DNA from: a virus
Taxonomy: Duplodnaviria; Heunggongvirae; Uroviricota; Caudoviricetes
DNA: 64,000 bases
Reading direction: 5' to 3' (one strand)
IMG/VR virus record: IMGVR_UViG_2778261505_000002
Both the position numbers and the translations under genes were made by a program. Under the pieces are notes generated by a model. The model saw only the letters and a list, made by a program, of their open reading frames with translations. It was not told the origin of the DNA and ran no database searches. Positions 30,919 to 50,522 of the stretch are shown piece by piece. Numbering within the stretch: position 1 is the stretch's first letter; each line of letters starts with the position of its first letter.

Positions 30919-31452
30919 CACCGCTGACAGCATACACAATCAACTACCGCTGATAGCATATCGAGAGTCTATCTCACCGCTCACAGCATACATTACTCGA
31001 TTTTTTACCGCTGACAGCATACTTAAGAAATTGCATGAATAATGTGTCCCGGTATGGGTATAACCAGAACAAAATTACCGCTGGCAGCATACGAATGTCT
31101 GACATATACCATTAATTACCGCTGATAGCATATCCAAACAAAAATTCCTCAATAAAACACCGCTGACAGCATACATTCTATCAGAGAGTAGCAGGCAATA
31201 AATGCCTTTCACTACAAGCAATCAGCGCAATAGCAATAGAATGTTAGTGAGCGCAAACCTATATGGAATGCACTCTTCGAGGTTAGTAACCACTGGGGAG
31301 GTATGACAGAGCATTGAGTGGTGATAGATGATTTACCGCTCACAGCATACGTTCATCTCACTATACCGCTGGTAGCATATCTTTAACCGTTCACAGCATA
31401 CTTTTCAGAAAAATAGCCGCTGATAGCATACATTTCACCGCTGACAGCATAT
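30919..31452. repeat. Iteron array (about 12 copies of ~17-bp repeat ACCGCTGACAGCATAC) downstream of repA
   Basis: Copies counted by eye with minor variants (CTGATAGCATAT, CTCACAGCATAC, CTGGCAGCATAC); irregular spacing with a ~150-bp gap between copies 7 and 8. Confidence 0.8.
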
Positions 31453-32546
31453 CAAAGCAGTTTGAGACTATTGGAAAGGATCTCAATCATCTTGATATTT
31501 TCAGGCGTCAAATTCTGCGAAAGTTCGGTTATCTTGTTGATAATGTTCTGTTTGGCATCAATTTCCCCAGCTTTCTCATCTGGTTTTTTGGGTTCGATGT
31601 CTTCAGGTTTTGGCGGTGCGACTTTGAGTTTTGGATTGCGGCTGTGAATCTGGATATAGATCGACCGCCCACGCTTAATCTCGCTGTATTCGAGATAGCC
31701 CAAATCTTGGAGAGCTTTTAAGCCGTTACGTATAGTCTGATTCTGCGAGCTGACATTCCTGCTACTCAAATTGAGTCGCGCACGCAATCGAGCAAGCGAT
31801 ACCGGCGCAGGCTTGGTTGGAAGACTTTCGATGAAGGTGTACAGAGCCTGTGCTGTTTCTTTGCGTGGTAGCTTATTGATAACCTTTAACTGCAAAAGAA
31901 CCTTATGGTCAAAGCGATATAGTTCGGCCAGCTTCGGTTCTGCATAGAACACCACCGTATCTTTCTGCTCGTTGTAGTCCACGCTATTGATGAGGTGCAC
32001 CATCAGAAGCGAGATCTTGTTAGAGCCGTCGACGTTCTTTTCTTCATACGTTCTCTGGAAAGACAGAGTTGTACGCATGATCTTCAAAAGACTGTTTGTA
32101 AGCCGGTCGCGGAGTGTTTTGCGGATCTGTGACGATGGATAGCCACAAAACTTAGCAAATTTCGTGATACTTAACTCGACACGACCGTTAGGTTCGCCGT
32201 ATTCTGCCAGCGAACGCACAACGCCCACCCACGTTTTGAAATCATGATCCATGTCGAGACGAGGACCGGTTATCTTGATATCGGAATAGCCTTCAGAACG
32301 GGCTACTTCGAGCTGGACAAGCTCCTTTGAAGCATCGATCTCATTTGGCTTGTTACGTTTACTGTATTTTGTTCCCTTAAGCGTGGGGACGAACAACCCC
32401 AGTCGCATCAACGCAATTGGTTGGACTGTATTGTTGCTATTAGGGACAAGTTCCCCTGTGTACAATTCAAGGGAACCTTCTTCAAAGTTGTCGATGTTAT
32501 CTTCTACTTCTTTGTTATTTTTACCTTTTTTATTTTTTGTGGACAT
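31452..32546 (-). CDS. repA: Iteron-binding replication initiator RepA
   Basis: 364 aa from Met at 32546 (track ORF extends into the upstream iterons); NSNNTVQPIALMRLGLFVP and IKITGPRLDMDHDFKTW segments match what I recall of P1/RepFIB-type RepA; flanked by iteron arrays. Confidence 0.8.
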   Translation of the reverse strand: MSTKNKKGKNNKEVEDNIDNFEEGSLELYTGELVPNSNNTVQPIALMRLGLFVPTLKGTKYSKRNKPNEIDASKELVQLEVARSEGYSDIKITGPRLDMDHDFKTWVGVVRSLAEYGEPNGRVELSITKFAKFCGYPSSQIRKTLRDRLTNSLLKIMRTTLSFQRTYEEKNVDGSNKISLLMVHLINSVDYNEQKDTVVFYAEPKLAELYRFDHKVLLQLKVINKLPRKETAQALYTFIESLPTKPAPVSLARLRARLNLSSRNVSSQNQTIRNGLKALQDLGYLEYSEIKRGRSIYIQIHSRNPKLKVAPPKPEDIEPKKPDEKAGEIDAKQNIINKITELSQNLTPENIKMIEILSNSLKLL

Positions 32547-32565
32547 GTGGACACCTTTGTCATTC

Positions 32566-32668
32566 AACCGCTGACAGCATACTTGATTTGCCGCTGACAG
32601 AATACCAAAAACAGTTGGCAGCATACGGTGAACCGCTGACAGACTATCAATTACCGCTGACAGCATAC
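32566..32668. repeat. Origin-side iterons (5 copies) upstream of repA
   Basis: Same CCGCTGACAGCATAC repeat family, five copies within ~100 bp immediately 5' of repA. Confidence 0.75.
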
Positions 32669-46192: not shown

Positions 46193-46750
46193 ATGACAAC
46201 GATTGTTGCAGGCATCGATATCGAGTCTACGGGACTGGATTTCCTTGCTGGTCATAAAATTATTGAAATCGCAATTACCCGCTATGAACTGGAGACACAG
46301 AGACATATTGATAGTCTGGAGATGCGTTTTAACCCTCGCAGAAACATAGATCCGAAAGCTCAAGCCGTTCATGGCATTTCATTGGAACAGCTCGCAGCTG
46401 AACCTTTGTTGTCAAATCATGCCAGCGAAATTGGCGCTTATATGGGGGCATGTAGTGTGTGGGTTGCTCATAACGGCGAAGCATTTGATATACCATTTAT
46501 TCGACACGAGTTTTCAGGGTATGGAGTAAGACTGCCAGAAGTTCCTGTTATAGATACTATGTTATCGGGATTTTGGGCCACAGAAGACGGTAAACGTCCC
46601 CGCCTTGAAGAGTTGGCCTTCTCTCTTGGCTTTATATACGATCATGCCAAAGCACATAGTGCCTTATATGACACAAACTTAATGATGCAATGCTTCTTTA
46701 AGGCACGTAATAAGTACGGATTTTTTAAATTACCCTCTGAAATTGTGTAA
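46193..46750 (+). CDS. DnaQ-like DEDDh 3'-5' exonuclease
   Basis: 185 aa; Exo I GIDIESTGL, Exo II VAHNGEAFDIPF, Exo III HSALYD. Confidence 0.75.
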   Translation: MTTIVAGIDIESTGLDFLAGHKIIEIAITRYELETQRHIDSLEMRFNPRRNIDPKAQAVHGISLEQLAAEPLLSNHASEIGAYMGACSVWVAHNGEAFDIPFIRHEFSGYGVRLPEVPVIDTMLSGFWATEDGKRPRLEELAFSLGFIYDHAKAHSALYDTNLMMQCFFKARNKYGFFKLPSEIV

Positions 46751-47901: not shown

Positions 47902-48495
47902 ATGATTGCAGCCGAAAAAATCAAACAGCGAAAGCGCGACAACTCTCTTCGTGACCTCTGGAGAACACCTGACTGGCTGTTTTCTGCCATTCAACGTTAT
48001 CTTGGAGTGACATTTGATGTTGACGTTGCCTGCAACAAGGACAATGCAAAGCTGCCTAATTTCATAGGCGTTGAGCGTGATGCTTTGAAATCTGAATGGG
48101 GACAGCCAGGTACAATTGCCTTCCTCAATCCACCCTACTCCAAAATCTACCCCTGGATTGATGCGGCTATACGTGAGCAGGCTCGCGGAGTTACAACAGT
48201 GATGCTAATTCCTCAATCCCTAGATACAAAGTGGTATGAGCGTGCAACAGAGTGTGCGAATGAGACGATTATTCTGTCTGGTGGCCGCGTAGCGTTTGTC
48301 GAGCCTGACGTAAATCTGGGGCAGGTAGAAGTAAACATCAACCCAGGTGGCAGTATGCTCGTTGTTTTTCGAGGATTCTGTCAGGACGCTGGGCACTCTA
48401 TAAGCAAGATCCCTTTGGACGTCATGAAAAGTCTGGGAGGGTATGATCCTGCGAATGTGATCAGGAAAAAAAGACCATCAAAGAAGGCTGCTTAG
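47902..48495 (+). CDS. DNA N6-adenine methyltransferase (phage Dam-like, orphan)
   Basis: 197 aa; WRTPDWLF N-terminal motif and catalytic NPPYS; no adjacent restriction endonuclease gene. Confidence 0.75.
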   Translation: MIAAEKIKQRKRDNSLRDLWRTPDWLFSAIQRYLGVTFDVDVACNKDNAKLPNFIGVERDALKSEWGQPGTIAFLNPPYSKIYPWIDAAIREQARGVTTVMLIPQSLDTKWYERATECANETIILSGGRVAFVEPDVNLGQVEVNINPGGSMLVVFRGFCQDAGHSISKIPLDVMKSLGGYDPANVIRKKRPSKKAA

Positions 48496-48527
48496 TTTGT
48501 TCTGGCGTCTGTAATTAGCCTGCTTCT

Positions 48528-48584
48528 GTATATATAAATAACTACATATTAATTATTAATATACGGAAGAAGGCTGTTTTGTAT
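48528..48584. repeat. Long hairpin element, copy 2 (homolog of 2584..2638)
   Basis: GCCTGCTTCTGTATATAT ... ATATACGGAAGAAGGC imperfect inverted repeat around an AT-rich loop; followed by GTTTTG. Confidence 0.6.
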
Positions 48585-48656
48585 CAGAGACTCCAGACCT
48601 GAACATCACTACAGAATCCACTAGAACCCCTTCCCAGACGCTTTAAAATCGATTTT

Positions 48657-48911
48657 ATGAACCACTTTAAGGAAACCAACATGTCATACCCGACTAATGT
48701 CGTTGCGCTCGTAGAGAGCGATTTTCTGGCCCAGGCTCGTGAAATGATGAAAGATCGTGAGCAGGCTTTCAACTTGTACGAATGGGCAATTAAGTGCTTG
48801 CATCTTGGCGAGCATCGCGAACTTGTTGAACAGCTTTTAGGTGAGTTGATCAATGAGGTGTTTGCCTTGAATGTTCAACTACATGGTAGAGAAAATAATC
48901 AATCACAATGA
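48657..48911 (+). CDS. Hypothetical protein
   Basis: 84-aa ORF; no recognisable motif. Confidence 0.4.
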   Translation: MNHFKETNMSYPTNVVALVESDFLAQAREMMKDREQAFNLYEWAIKCLHLGEHRELVEQLLGELINEVFALNVQLHGRENNQSQ

Positions 48912-49494
48912 TAGATAAGTACAAACTATTCATAAAGTGAATTGTAAGTGCTAAGATCTGATAGTTTCCAGTCGTAGACTGGAGACTCGACCTGATGGGT
49001 GGGGGTAAGCGTCACTGGCGTCAGGTTTAAAAAAAGCTCACTACCAGCGTAGAACTGGTGCCGTTTAGGTGTCGGGGAAGGGGGAACCAAAGTGAGCAGA
49101 GACAAGGGTCACTTTATGATTGTCGAGTCTGGGGTGTTTCGAGAGGTTGAATCCAGTACTCCCCTTCATAAAGTGTGGGAAGATCTCGGTTCTGGGGTGC
49201 TGTCATCCATAACTTCCCAAGTCTAAGCTGGCAGTAGACTTAGACCATAACTTTTCAGGTTATGAAACGACCAGGTTGGTGAGAGATTTTTATACTCACC
49301 TCCCTGGGAGAGTATTACCTGAAAAGACAACCTCTCACTTCGTTCGAGGTGAACTTCACTCACTTCGTTCGTTCAGTTCAGGTTTATAAAAACCTGTTCT
49401 GGGAAGTAATTTGTTTATTTTAATAATTATTAACACGCACGCGTGTGCGCACGCGCGAGGAAAAATCGGCGCGGCGCTTGATTCAGGAGTTTAT

Positions 49495-50085
49495 ATGACG
49501 ACGAAGACACCAGCCCGATCGCAAGCAAAAACTCGCAAAAAAGCCAAAAACAAAAATTCCCCCCGCACCAATCCCACAACGCCTGTCGTAGAGTTCAATC
49601 CCCAGCTTAAAACCGTGAAAATCTTTAGTGATGGCTCTTGCCTTAAAAATCCGGGTGGCCCGGGCGGTTACGGTATCGTTCTCCAGTATCGTGGTGAGGA
49701 ACGCGAGTTCTCAGATGGTTTTCATAGCACCACCAATAACCGCATGGAGATGATGGGGGCACTTATCGGGCTGGAGCGTTTGAAATATCCATGCAACGTT
49801 ATTTTGCACTCTGATAGCCAGTATCTGAAAAACGGCATGACACAGTGGATGAAATGGTGGAAACGCAATGGATGGATGACTTCTGACAAAAAACCAGTAA
49901 AGAATGTTGATCTGTGGAAGCGTCTGGATGAGGCCGCAAGTCGACATAATGTTCGCTGGAAGTGGGTTAAAGGTCACGCCGGGCATCGTGAAAATGAAAT
50001 ATGTGATCGACTCGCGAAGATCGCAGCTTTTTCAGCAGCAGATATGCCTCACAAGAAAGATATTGGTTTTGTTTATAATAAATAG
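49495..50085 (+). CDS. Ribonuclease HI with basic N-terminal extension
   Basis: Start at ATG 49495 after CAGGAG (track ORF begins 49411 inside a GC-rich palindromic tract); RNase H core IFSDGSC...[28 protein letters not shown]. Confidence 0.8.
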
Positions 50086-50522
50086 TAAGTAAGTGTTTAC
50101 CTATCATTTTAAATCATGTATCTTATCGGCGTCAGGATGACAATGTGTCGGTAAGACACAGTTCCAGGATGGAACGAGAAAGGCGGCTGGCAATCGCCAG
50201 CCGCAACTCTTTCTGACACTGGATGGAGTCCACATGGCACGTCAAACCTATTTCACTTCTGTAACTAAACGTCCTCGTTCTTTACGTCAAATTTTGGCCG
50301 AATTATTTAGCGGTCGGGTTATGTCACGCCTTGATGAACTAGAGACTACCGTTCGGTTGCTGAATGAACGTTTAGATAATCAAGCGTCAGTTGTTGCGAA
50401 CGTGGGGGCGATTGTTGCCTCTGGTTCTTCACGCGAAGCGAAAAATGCACGGCCTTTAGTGAAGGAGAAAAACAACAAGGACAGTTCGAATGGAAAATTT
50501 TCAAAGAAAGAGGCTGAAACCA

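Follow-up and report, generated by a model that had tools for sequence, protein, structure and literature searches.

The DNA analysed in this study is a window of 64,000 nucleotides (nt) from a virus record of the Caudoviricetes (IMG/VR IMGVR_UViG_2778261505_000002), and the region in question covers 583 nt of it, from 48912 to 49494, between the gene of a 76-residue protein and rnhA, the gene of RNase HI. Matches of this region identify the window as a phage-plasmid of the SSU5/pHCM2 type. The neighbourhood is a replication and nucleotide-metabolism module that encodes Pol III alpha, a ribonucleotide reductase and a thymidylate synthase and, closer to the region, an RNase T-type exonuclease, a Dam methylase and the 76-residue protein, followed by the region itself and RNase HI. 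A preliminary description, made from the letters alone, had noted repeats and hairpins in a stretch without a convincing open reading frame (ORF) and had proposed a structured RNA, a lytic replication origin or a packaging site. The features are real and the first of these three readings is right: the segment from about 48929 to 49410 on the plus strand is very probably an independent gene of a structured noncoding RNA (ncRNA) of approximately 445 nt (Table 1).

Table 1. Window coordinates of the RNA locus, its 3' flank and the two adjoining genes.
Feature	Position	Strand	Basis or remark
-35 hexamer TTCATA	48929..48934	+	TTnA invariant in the homologue alignment
Extended -10 element TGcTAAGAT (hexamer 48952-48957)	48949..48957	+	TGnTAnnAT in every lineage examined, including type 2
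Predicted transcription start and 5' clamp hairpin CCAGUC-GUA-GACUGG, extended	48963..48987	+	Inverted repeat
Long hairpin H1 (48989-49004 with 49010-49027), G-rich 5' strand GAUGGGUGGGGG	48986..49027	+	Covariation
Multi-branch domain closed by GCUCACU/AGUGAGC	49036..49097	+	Helices 3-6; 3 of 7 closing pairs compensatory
Three-segment long hairpin H7-H9 with invariant GAGG apical loop	49110..49175	+	Inverted repeat, 10/10 complementary
Domain UGGGAAG/CUUCCCA around invariant GAUCUCGGUUCUGGGG, then hairpin GUCUAAGCUG-GCAG-UAGACUUAGAC	49176..49245	+	Helices 10-12
Domain CUUUUCAGGU/ACCUGAAAAG around CCAGG/CCUGG and GGUGAG/CUCACC	49251..49326	+	Helices 13-14
Two adjacent 3'-domain hairpins, loops are the 13-nt repeat copies (motif CUUCGUUCG)	49327..49380	+	Repeat and covariation
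Terminal hairpin GGUUU-AUAA-AAACC and conserved UCUGGGAAGUAA	49381..49409	+	Conservation stops at about 49409
Variable AT/U-rich spacer, 23 nt, with palindrome TAATTATTAA	49410..49432	+	Sequence and length vary by lineage
25-nt alternating purine/pyrimidine GC tract, then AGG and poly-A	49433..49465	+	Lineage comparison
Gene of 76-residue helical protein (phrog_5343), directly upstream	48681..48911	+	PHROG match
rnhA (RNase HI)	49495..50085	+	Pfam RNase_H PF00075, E = 9.8e-45, residues 40-178

The homologues were searched for a conserved coding frame, a finding that would have spoken against a noncoding region, and none was present. The only ORFs are 20-59 residues long, none of them conserved, and they differ from clade to clade, with indels of 1-2 nt scattered over the whole region. 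Variable alignment columns fall on the three codon phases in the ratio 72/87/79, so there is no 3-nt periodicity. In phage Cyrano the 44-residue ORF (49092-49226) bears the annotation CYRAN_81; frameshifts disrupt it in the Klebsiella and L103 lineages, and it had no PHROG match.

The RNA is preceded by a conserved promoter of its own. Its -35 and -10 elements are separated by 17 nt, and together they form an extended -10 sigma-70 promoter that would start transcription at about 48964 (48963-48965). The promoter was identified by eye: it matches 8 of 12 positions, and the simple scanner, with a threshold of 9 of 12, did not list it. Hexamers of the type TTTAcn stand at the equivalent place in the type-1, Cronobacter, L103 and type-2 lineages (type 1 being the RNA of the window and type 2 an unalignable RNA in the same genomic slot), and the combination of a TTnAnn -35 hexamer with the extended -10 element is conserved in all type-1 clades and in type 2. 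Directly after the predicted start, about ten lineages have a hairpin at the same position although its sequence differs (CCAGUC/GACUGG, CCGGA/UCCGG, UUCGA/UCGAA, UGGCAGA/UCUGCCA, UUCCAGC/GCUGGAA and others), and the retention of the hairpin while the sequence varies is the pattern of a structural 5' clamp. In the window this hairpin, earlier written as CCAGTC-GTAGA-CTGG, is present but is better read as CCAGTC-GTA-GACTGG, its arms with flanking bases covering 48963-73 and 48977-87. As a separate observation, the promoter region 48929-48959 echoes the internal RNA segment 49165-49186 (TTCATAAAGTG and GTGCTAAGATCT resemble TTCATAAAGTG and GTGGGAAGATCT) and, besides, is complementary to 49109-49119, features confined to the E. 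coli clade; judged by sequence likeness, a partial internal duplication may underlie the resemblance.

The conserved core of the RNA comprises about 420 nt (48986-49409) and folds into approximately 17 helices in four to five domains. A 447-nt segment of the plus strand reached a predicted folding energy of -165.5 kcal/mol (z = -4.9), with none of 100 shuffled sequences as stable; the minus strand gave -138.1 kcal/mol (z = -3.7). RNAalifold reported compensatory changes at 28 of 130 pairs with seven sequences and at 29 of 100 pairs with 13 sequences. A curated structure of 117 pairs in 17 helices was then tested on an alignment of 14 sequences from E. coli, Salmonella, Klebsiella, Kluyvera, the L103 lineage (82% identical) and three Cronobacter-type elements (approximately 68%), using as controls 3' partners slid by 1-3 columns and 500 shuffles. 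Standard pairs filled 95.0% of the cells compared with 34-51% in the slid controls, 32 pairs had changed on both sides compared with 3-10, and the covariation score was 0.259 compared with 0.04-0.09. None of the 500 shuffles matched the observed values, and several pairs occur as three or four pair types from different lineages. The structure of the window sequence further contains 11 G.U pairs, several of them invariant, which would be A.C mismatches in an antisense transcript, indicating that the plus strand is the functional one.

Of the 14 pairs of the long hairpin H1, five are compensatory, its cells are 96% paired and it includes invariant G.U pairs. The multi-branch domain that follows contains the invariant single strands ACCAGCG..GAAC and GGGGAAGGGGGAACCAAAG. 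Helices 10-12 are paired in 100% of the cells, with nine compensatory pairs. In the outer helix of the fourth domain, CUUUUCAGGU/ACCUGAAAAG, the L103 lineage has lost one C-G pair by a compensatory double deletion, and the apical helix of this domain is the second hairpin of the preliminary description, which was found as GGTGAG-CTCACC at 49278-49300 with a spacer of 11 rather than 9 nt.

The direct repeat reported earlier, the 13-mer CTCACTTCGTTCG, likewise exists; the first copy lies at 49334-49346 as described, and the second at 49359-49371, one position further on than had been stated. By our own arithmetic, chance alone would give approximately 0.003 exact 13-mer repeats in a sequence of 583 nt. 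The two copies form the loops of adjacent hairpins, the stems of which vary in a compensatory manner. The second stem, UGAACU/AGUUCA, is replaced by GAAACC/GGUUUC in Cronobacter (helix 16: 100% paired, three compensatory pairs) and, by eye, by AGAGCU/AGCUCU in L103, and the first, CCUC/GAGG, becomes CUCUC/GAGAG in L103, again by eye. These L103 variants were read from its own sequence, which is cut short and misaligned at this place in the alignment. Terminal helix 17 is paired in only 66% of the cells across clades, and the only terminator-like feature of type 1 is this hairpin with a U-rich run 7 nt further on.

The invariant 23-mer ACAACCTCTCACTNCGTTCGAGG at 49327-49349, or its 20-base core, also recurs in unrelated sequences (L015, L024, L051, L088, L089, L091-L093 and L095). 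Outside SSU5-type elements there are about four independent matches compared with about one expected by chance: in a viral contig, inside an ORF of 442 residues; in three Acidobacteria, on the opposite strand in the 5' untranslated region of a gene whose product is anti-sigma-factor-like by eye; and in one Bacteroidales and one gammaproteobacterial metagenome-assembled genome. With the viral copy inside an ORF and the Acidobacteria copies antisense, a wider motif was set aside as coincidental or unexplained.

Published RNA sequencing (RNA-seq) data show a discrete transcript over the region, which was the check proposed at the outset. Misson and colleagues recorded transcriptomes of E. coli LF82, a strain that carries Cyrano (PMC9928086), in which CYRAN_81 is a pseudo-ORF inside the RNA and serves here as its reporter. 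In an overnight LB culture CYRAN_81 was 12-fold above the local prophage background (PMC9928086, Table 1). Its normalised count was 117, compared with 9.5 for the gene of the 76-residue protein upstream and 8.4 for rnhA (PMC9928086, S1 Table), so that the transcript exceeds its neighbours 12-14 times in the lysogen. Its log2 FPKM (fragments per kilobase per million) values were 6.8-6.9 in overnight LB, 9.0-9.3 at 1 h and 6.9 at 6 h, and inside macrophages 8.2-9.0 at 1 h and 10.3 at 6 h (PMC9928086). Over this range of 6.8-10.35 it exceeded the two adjoining genes by 3-5 log2 units in each of the five conditions. Phage production was blocked in conditions under which the RNA was still made, including macrophages (PMC9928086). 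Counts far above both flanks indicate a discrete transcript that begins past the upstream gene and is terminated or processed ahead of rnhA. The conserved promoter, the covariation in about 17 helices, the plus-strand G.U pairs and this transcript together give strong support to a structured ncRNA.

The region is widespread. It matched 685 PLSDB plasmids at 80-100% identity, from Klebsiella, Escherichia, Enterobacter, Salmonella, Citrobacter and Cronobacter, with relatives typed as IncFIB in that database, and 12 phage records, including Salmonella phage SSU5, CMS-2020a and Cyrano. Identity over the region is 100% to Escherichia phage CMS-2020a, 97% to Cyrano in particular and 91-98% to SSU5, pHCM2 (S. 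Typhi CT18) and Cyrano taken together. The RNA is carried by 232 of 5426 complete E. coli genomes (4.3%). The core is the best-conserved stretch of its neighbourhood: it is 94.5% identical to SSU5/pHCM2, the flanking coding sequences being 74-81% identical, and 90.7% identical to a Klebsiella element with flanks at 74-76%. None of the records examined has it annotated, the listed records of E. coli carriers, for instance, showing no feature there, and full-text searches of the literature turned up no earlier account of an ncRNA from SSU5 or pHCM2 elements. It is a widespread RNA, previously unannotated, that is expressed in lysogeny. Two irregular homologues were also encountered. In Buttiauxella gaviniae (L087:2638-3259, reverse strand) the RNA is truncated to its 3' two-thirds, beginning at AAAGTGAGCAGAG, and is fused to unrelated upstream sequence that is coding-like by eye. 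The entry L106 (Logan SRR8137545) was discarded as a homologue; it is an assembly of bisulfite-converted reads in which nearly all C is read as T, an artefact in a public assembly collection.

The same slot can be occupied by other RNAs. About 30 Klebsiella plasmids, among them K. oxytoca pCAV1099-111 (L096:2726-3295; further loci L097, L099-L102, L186 and L187), have a 76-residue homologue (46-51% identity), an ORF-free region of 570-650 nt and an RNase H gene. Their type-2 RNA is approximately 440-500 nt long, repeats the promoter and 5' hairpin layout of type 1 and has a hairpin followed by U7 near its end, about 100 nt before rnhA. No homology between the types was found by blastn or by profile nhmmer in both directions; a hairpin-loop motif, GGUGGGGG..AGCG, is common to both by eye. 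The type-2 fold showed 96.2% paired cells compared with 36-45% in controls, and 17 compensatory pairs compared with 0-3. A 713-nt ORF-free region at L104:1726-2437 (Logan SRR28417476) follows a 76-residue homologue that is 69% identical to that of the window and closer to type-1 lineages; it has only 51 nt in common with type 2 and precedes two RNase H-family genes. From its sequence, it may be a third RNA type. In all 80 of 80 viral contigs encoding the 76-residue protein, a type-1 or type-2 RNA begins about 77 nt past the stop codon, and in a Moellerella relative no obvious RNA was found after the 76-residue homologue.

The best explanation, held with confidence a little better than even, is an independent ncRNA gene that is a core component of SSU5/pHCM2-type phage-plasmids and whose product acts in trans as a folded RNA. 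Transcription would start at about 48964 from the sigma-70 promoter, and the transcript would open with the 5' clamp, fold into its approximately 17 helices and accumulate in the lysogenic (plasmid) state to more than 10-fold above the silent flanking replication and nucleotide-metabolism genes. It could be the RNA component of a protein of the phage-plasmid or of the host, or could serve such a protein as decoy or sponge; its mode of action would then be neither antisense pairing nor that of an rnhA leader or a DNA site. The two 13-mer loops would present CUUCGUUCG twice, which would suit a dimeric protein or a repeated ligand and makes them a candidate bipartite site. Action in trans as a folded RNA is proposed because no complementary target was found in the window or in a complete related element, the constraint extends over the full length and the RNA persists whatever lies downstream. 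That this action consists specifically in binding a protein is a more tentative proposal, which we place somewhat short of an even chance.

Several points weigh against this explanation. Most compensatory cells go back to one deep divergence, that of the main clade from the Cronobacter clade, so that independent events are far fewer than the counted cells. The RNA-seq data come from a relative with a 96-97% identical RNA rather than from the strain of the window and were counted over only 135 nt; their strandedness could not be checked and the transcript ends are unmapped, and the data would look no different for a long leader terminated or processed ahead of rnhA. No canonical intrinsic terminator was found after the type-1 core. 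Between Cyrano and the window the RNA is 96.4% identical and the flanks 98.6-99%, the reverse of the excess conservation seen elsewhere; this indicates that the segment has a recombination history of its own, and the excess similarity may derive partly from exchange and not from constraint. A gene for RNase H follows type 1, type 2 and L104 alike, three RNAs that differ greatly, and this recurrence would be compatible with a functional link between the RNA and RNase H. Finally, the proposed protein binding in trans is solely an inference.

The alternative that survives best, although we consider it unlikely, is a cis-acting leader or attenuator: a long structured 5' leader that in the lysogen would stop transcription from a constitutive promoter ahead of rnhA and the genes behind it, and would permit read-through under some signal. 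The RNA lies directly upstream of rnhA and on the same strand in most lineages, coverage drops 14-fold from the RNA to rnhA, the type-2 RNA has its U7 hairpin ahead of rnhA, and no strong separate promoter of rnhA was found. The genes behind the RNA, on the other hand, are exchangeable. In pKPT877 the RNA is intact and rnhA is replaced by the JukA/JukB defence genes (PADLOC E = 6e-65 and 2e-12; L004:2691-4303), an unrelated cassette with a promoter-like sequence of its own, TTGATT-17-TATATT by eye. Cronobacter JZ38 has an intact RNA followed by a Tad2-like (Thoeris anti-defence) gene instead of rnhA (L003:3529-4343), Kluyvera (L094:5153-6762) has an intact RNA followed by two convergent genes, one with CxxC/HNH-like motifs, and the type-2 plasmids L099 and L101 keep the RNA with downstream genes that are likewise convergent. 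Because rnhA is replaced by such varied genes, the position behind the RNA is best described as a cargo slot, and because the RNA persists without rnhA it is not dedicated to RNase HI, either as a leader or as a partner. The functional tie to the adjacent RNase H that had been suggested in the preliminary description is thereby weakened. In addition, 440 nt and about 17 helices far exceed known attenuators, and no riboswitch or leader family of Rfam matched.

An RNA-primed (R-loop) origin, in which a pre-primer hybridises at 49410-49465 and is processed by the adjacent RNase HI, is a still weaker alternative and is regarded as quite improbable. ColE1 RNA II and the phage T4 and T7 origins are the models for such a pre-primer. 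The promoter lies about 530 bp upstream of rnhA within a replication-gene module, the conserved stretches GGGUGGGGG and GGGGAAGGGGG are G-rich, an AT-rich stretch is followed by the GC tract, and RNase HI follows three divergent RNA types, one of them (L104) with two RNase H genes. The lytic-origin reading of the preliminary description nevertheless found no support. The nearest match to a DnaA box, at 46744, is 2.2 kb away and the count over the whole window is at chance level; repeats in the region are two-copy only, the best being the two RNA hairpin loops, so that there are no iterons. An antisense RNA I of the ColE1 type was not found, there being no Rfam RNAI match and no minus-strand terminator at the 5' end of the RNA; the only minus-strand promoter-like match (48970-48941) points away from the RNA. 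The Rep_3 (PF01051) plasmid initiator gene, on the opposite strand at 31452-32666, is 17 kb away, and the cumulative GC skew has no turning point at the region. Moreover, the RNA is plentiful both in uninduced lysogens and inside macrophages in which phage production is blocked, conditions under which the replication genes are silent, and it is retained in elements without rnhA.

Neither the Cronobacter type nor type 2 has conserved the proposed hybridisation site. The alternating purine/pyrimidine tract within it, with the nested palindrome noted earlier, measures 25 nt at 49433-49457 rather than 24; it spans 14-27 nt in the lineages of E. coli, Salmonella and Klebsiella, measures only 7-8 nt in the Cronobacter type and is absent in type 2. 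In elements with a replaced rnhA the junction falls directly past ...AAAATCG, at about 49468 of the window, that is, after the poly-A run, which shows that the GC tract travels with the RNA side. GC tract and poly-A accompany the RNA but lie outside the conserved fold. The poly-A run itself (49461-49465) varies from A5 to A9 among near-identical E. coli elements, which looks like a slippage-type length polymorphism in the 5' region of rnhA.

About equally improbable is a precursor of small base-pairing RNAs directed against host chromosomal mRNAs. Expression in the lysogen resembles that of prophage 'morons', it is higher in growing cells and inside macrophages, and conserved single-stranded stretches are available for pairing. 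The structural constraint, however, covers the whole 420 nt and not a seed alone, and the 3' end is not of the terminator type typical of Hfq-dependent small RNAs. No target was found in the element itself, host targets not having been searched: in the window the best antisense complementarity was 12 nt perfect or 16 nt with one mismatch (E of at least 1.4), and across the whole of a related 107.6-kb element matches were at chance level (E of at least 2.3). A DNA-level element (pac/cos site, single-strand initiation signal, cruciform or Z-DNA site) is very improbable: the many inverted repeats, the 25-nt tract, Z-DNA-prone in principle, and one Klebsiella phage record that happens to start at the 76-residue protein gene are outweighed by G.U pairs kept on one strand only, by the promoter and discrete transcript, by the loss of the GC tract in two lineages that keep the RNA, and by the genes at 45-51.4 kb (AAA ATPase, exonuclease, Dam, RNase H and TerB), which serve replication, repair and methylation and include no terminase, leaving the earlier packaging-site reading unsupported as well.

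An independent, folded ncRNA thus accounts best for the locus, and a more far-reaching version of this explanation is conceivable, though we think it rather doubtful: the RNA could represent a new class of large RNA and a type-specific determinant of the SSU5 phage-plasmid lifestyle, acting in immunity, incompatibility or copy number or as a subunit of a ribonucleoprotein. Pointing in this direction are the unalignable types (type 1, type 2 and L104-like) in one slot, the expression in lysogeny, the much higher conservation of each type relative to its flanks and the position at the edge of a cargo slot for RNase HI, JukAB or Tad2-like genes. As a sub-case, it may be an RNA II-like pre-primer of a second, initiator-independent replicon that is served by RNase HI. 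Phage-plasmids of the SSU5/pHCM2 type are common in clinical Enterobacterales and carry resistance and defence genes, and the biology of their plasmid state is poorly known. With a tractable host, natural deletion and replacement variants and a second RNA type at hand, the function of the RNA is directly testable.

The two flanking genes and the nearby intergenic regions showed further features. An AlphaFold2 model of the 76-residue protein (pLDDT 80) consists of three helices, and a PDB search with it gave no match at E < 6. A Rop-like role of the protein as a partner of the RNA found no support, as it had no such PDB match and its gene is not co-expressed in the lysogen. RNase HI has a Lys/Arg-rich N-terminal extension of about 38 residues (49495-49610), the Pfam domain beginning at residue 40; E. 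coli RnhA presumably lacks such an extension. The intergenic region behind rnhA (50086-50233) is 82-87% conserved and contains two GGA motifs of the CsrA type, one of them CAGGAUGA (about 50133) and the other the hairpin GUUCC-AGGAU-GGAAC (50161-75). A GC hairpin of 9 bp lies at 50183-50204, directly before a gene of 164 residues; an Rfam CsrB match in this region is weak (16.8 bits, E = 0.05). Between the Dam gene and the 76-residue protein gene, at 48505-48590, lies a long imperfect AT-rich palindrome, GCCTGCTTCTGTATAT...ATATACGGAAGAAGGC, the loop of which contains the palindrome TAATTATTAA that is found again at 49420-33. This palindrome and the equivalent L103 and L104 regions gave chance-level matches to miRNA precursors.

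Known RNA families were searched with Rfam 15, a set of 4227 families that includes GOLLD, ROOL, HEARO, OLE, 6S, CsrB, RNase P, tmRNA, RNAI and riboswitches. At gathering thresholds the whole window yielded only three tRNAs, which are clustered at 10447-10690 (10.4-10.7 kb). The Rfam scan that had been proposed as a check gave no family match within the RNA: a permissive scan (E <= 10) of 48400-50300 found nothing inside 48986-49330 and only chance-level eukaryotic and viral matches near the edges, and six diverged homologues had no match in the RNA either. ARAGORN detected no tRNA or tmRNA in the region. Two further candidates were rejected. The hairpin at 49221-49245 partially resembles what we take to be the type I-F CRISPR repeat, but the resemblance is not conserved in the Cronobacter clade, arguing against mimicry by an RNA anti-CRISPR; and a CsrA sponge was rejected since the GGA count is at chance level by estimate.

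Large structured RNAs that belong to no known family are rare, and new biochemistry has come from them repeatedly. With GOLLD, ROOL, OLE and HEARO the RNA has in common a length of several hundred nt, many covarying helices, carriage by phages or prophages, a promoter of its own, no coding capacity and no obvious antisense target. GOLLD and ROOL are approximately 600-800 nt long, whereas the present RNA has about 445 nt and no covariance-model match, and in contrast to all four groups it has so far been seen only in SSU5-type phage-plasmids of Enterobacterales, in a fixed syntenic slot. ColE1 RNA II is likewise a structured RNA of about 450-550 nt with a constitutive promoter, G-rich segments and a link to RNase HI, here encoded next door, and both RNAs fall into separate sequence types with high conservation inside each type. 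The present RNA differs from the ColE1 system in that there is no antisense RNA I, the replicon has a Rep_3 initiator and the RNA is kept where rnhA is lost.

The c4 RNA of P1/P7, the CI RNA of P4 and the CB RNA of N15 are regulatory plasmid-prophage RNAs made in lysogeny from a lytic gene block, with allelic types that differ between related elements, and in these respects the present RNA is similar. They are about 70-100 nt long and act through short complementary targets in their own element, whereas the present RNA is about five times longer, is structured throughout and has no complementary target in 107.6 kb. It also recalls 6S RNA and CsrB/CsrC, which are abundant, stable, structured and trans-acting and have a repeated loop motif, here in two copies only, but it contains no open-promoter mimic, no array of GGA hairpins and no Rfam match. 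None of the tests that were run placed it among the large structured phage RNAs or the lysogeny-expressed plasmid-prophage RNAs. By analogy, nonetheless, it resembles in kind the large structured RNAs of phages and prophages, and in lifestyle the plasmid-prophage RNAs that are expressed in lysogeny.

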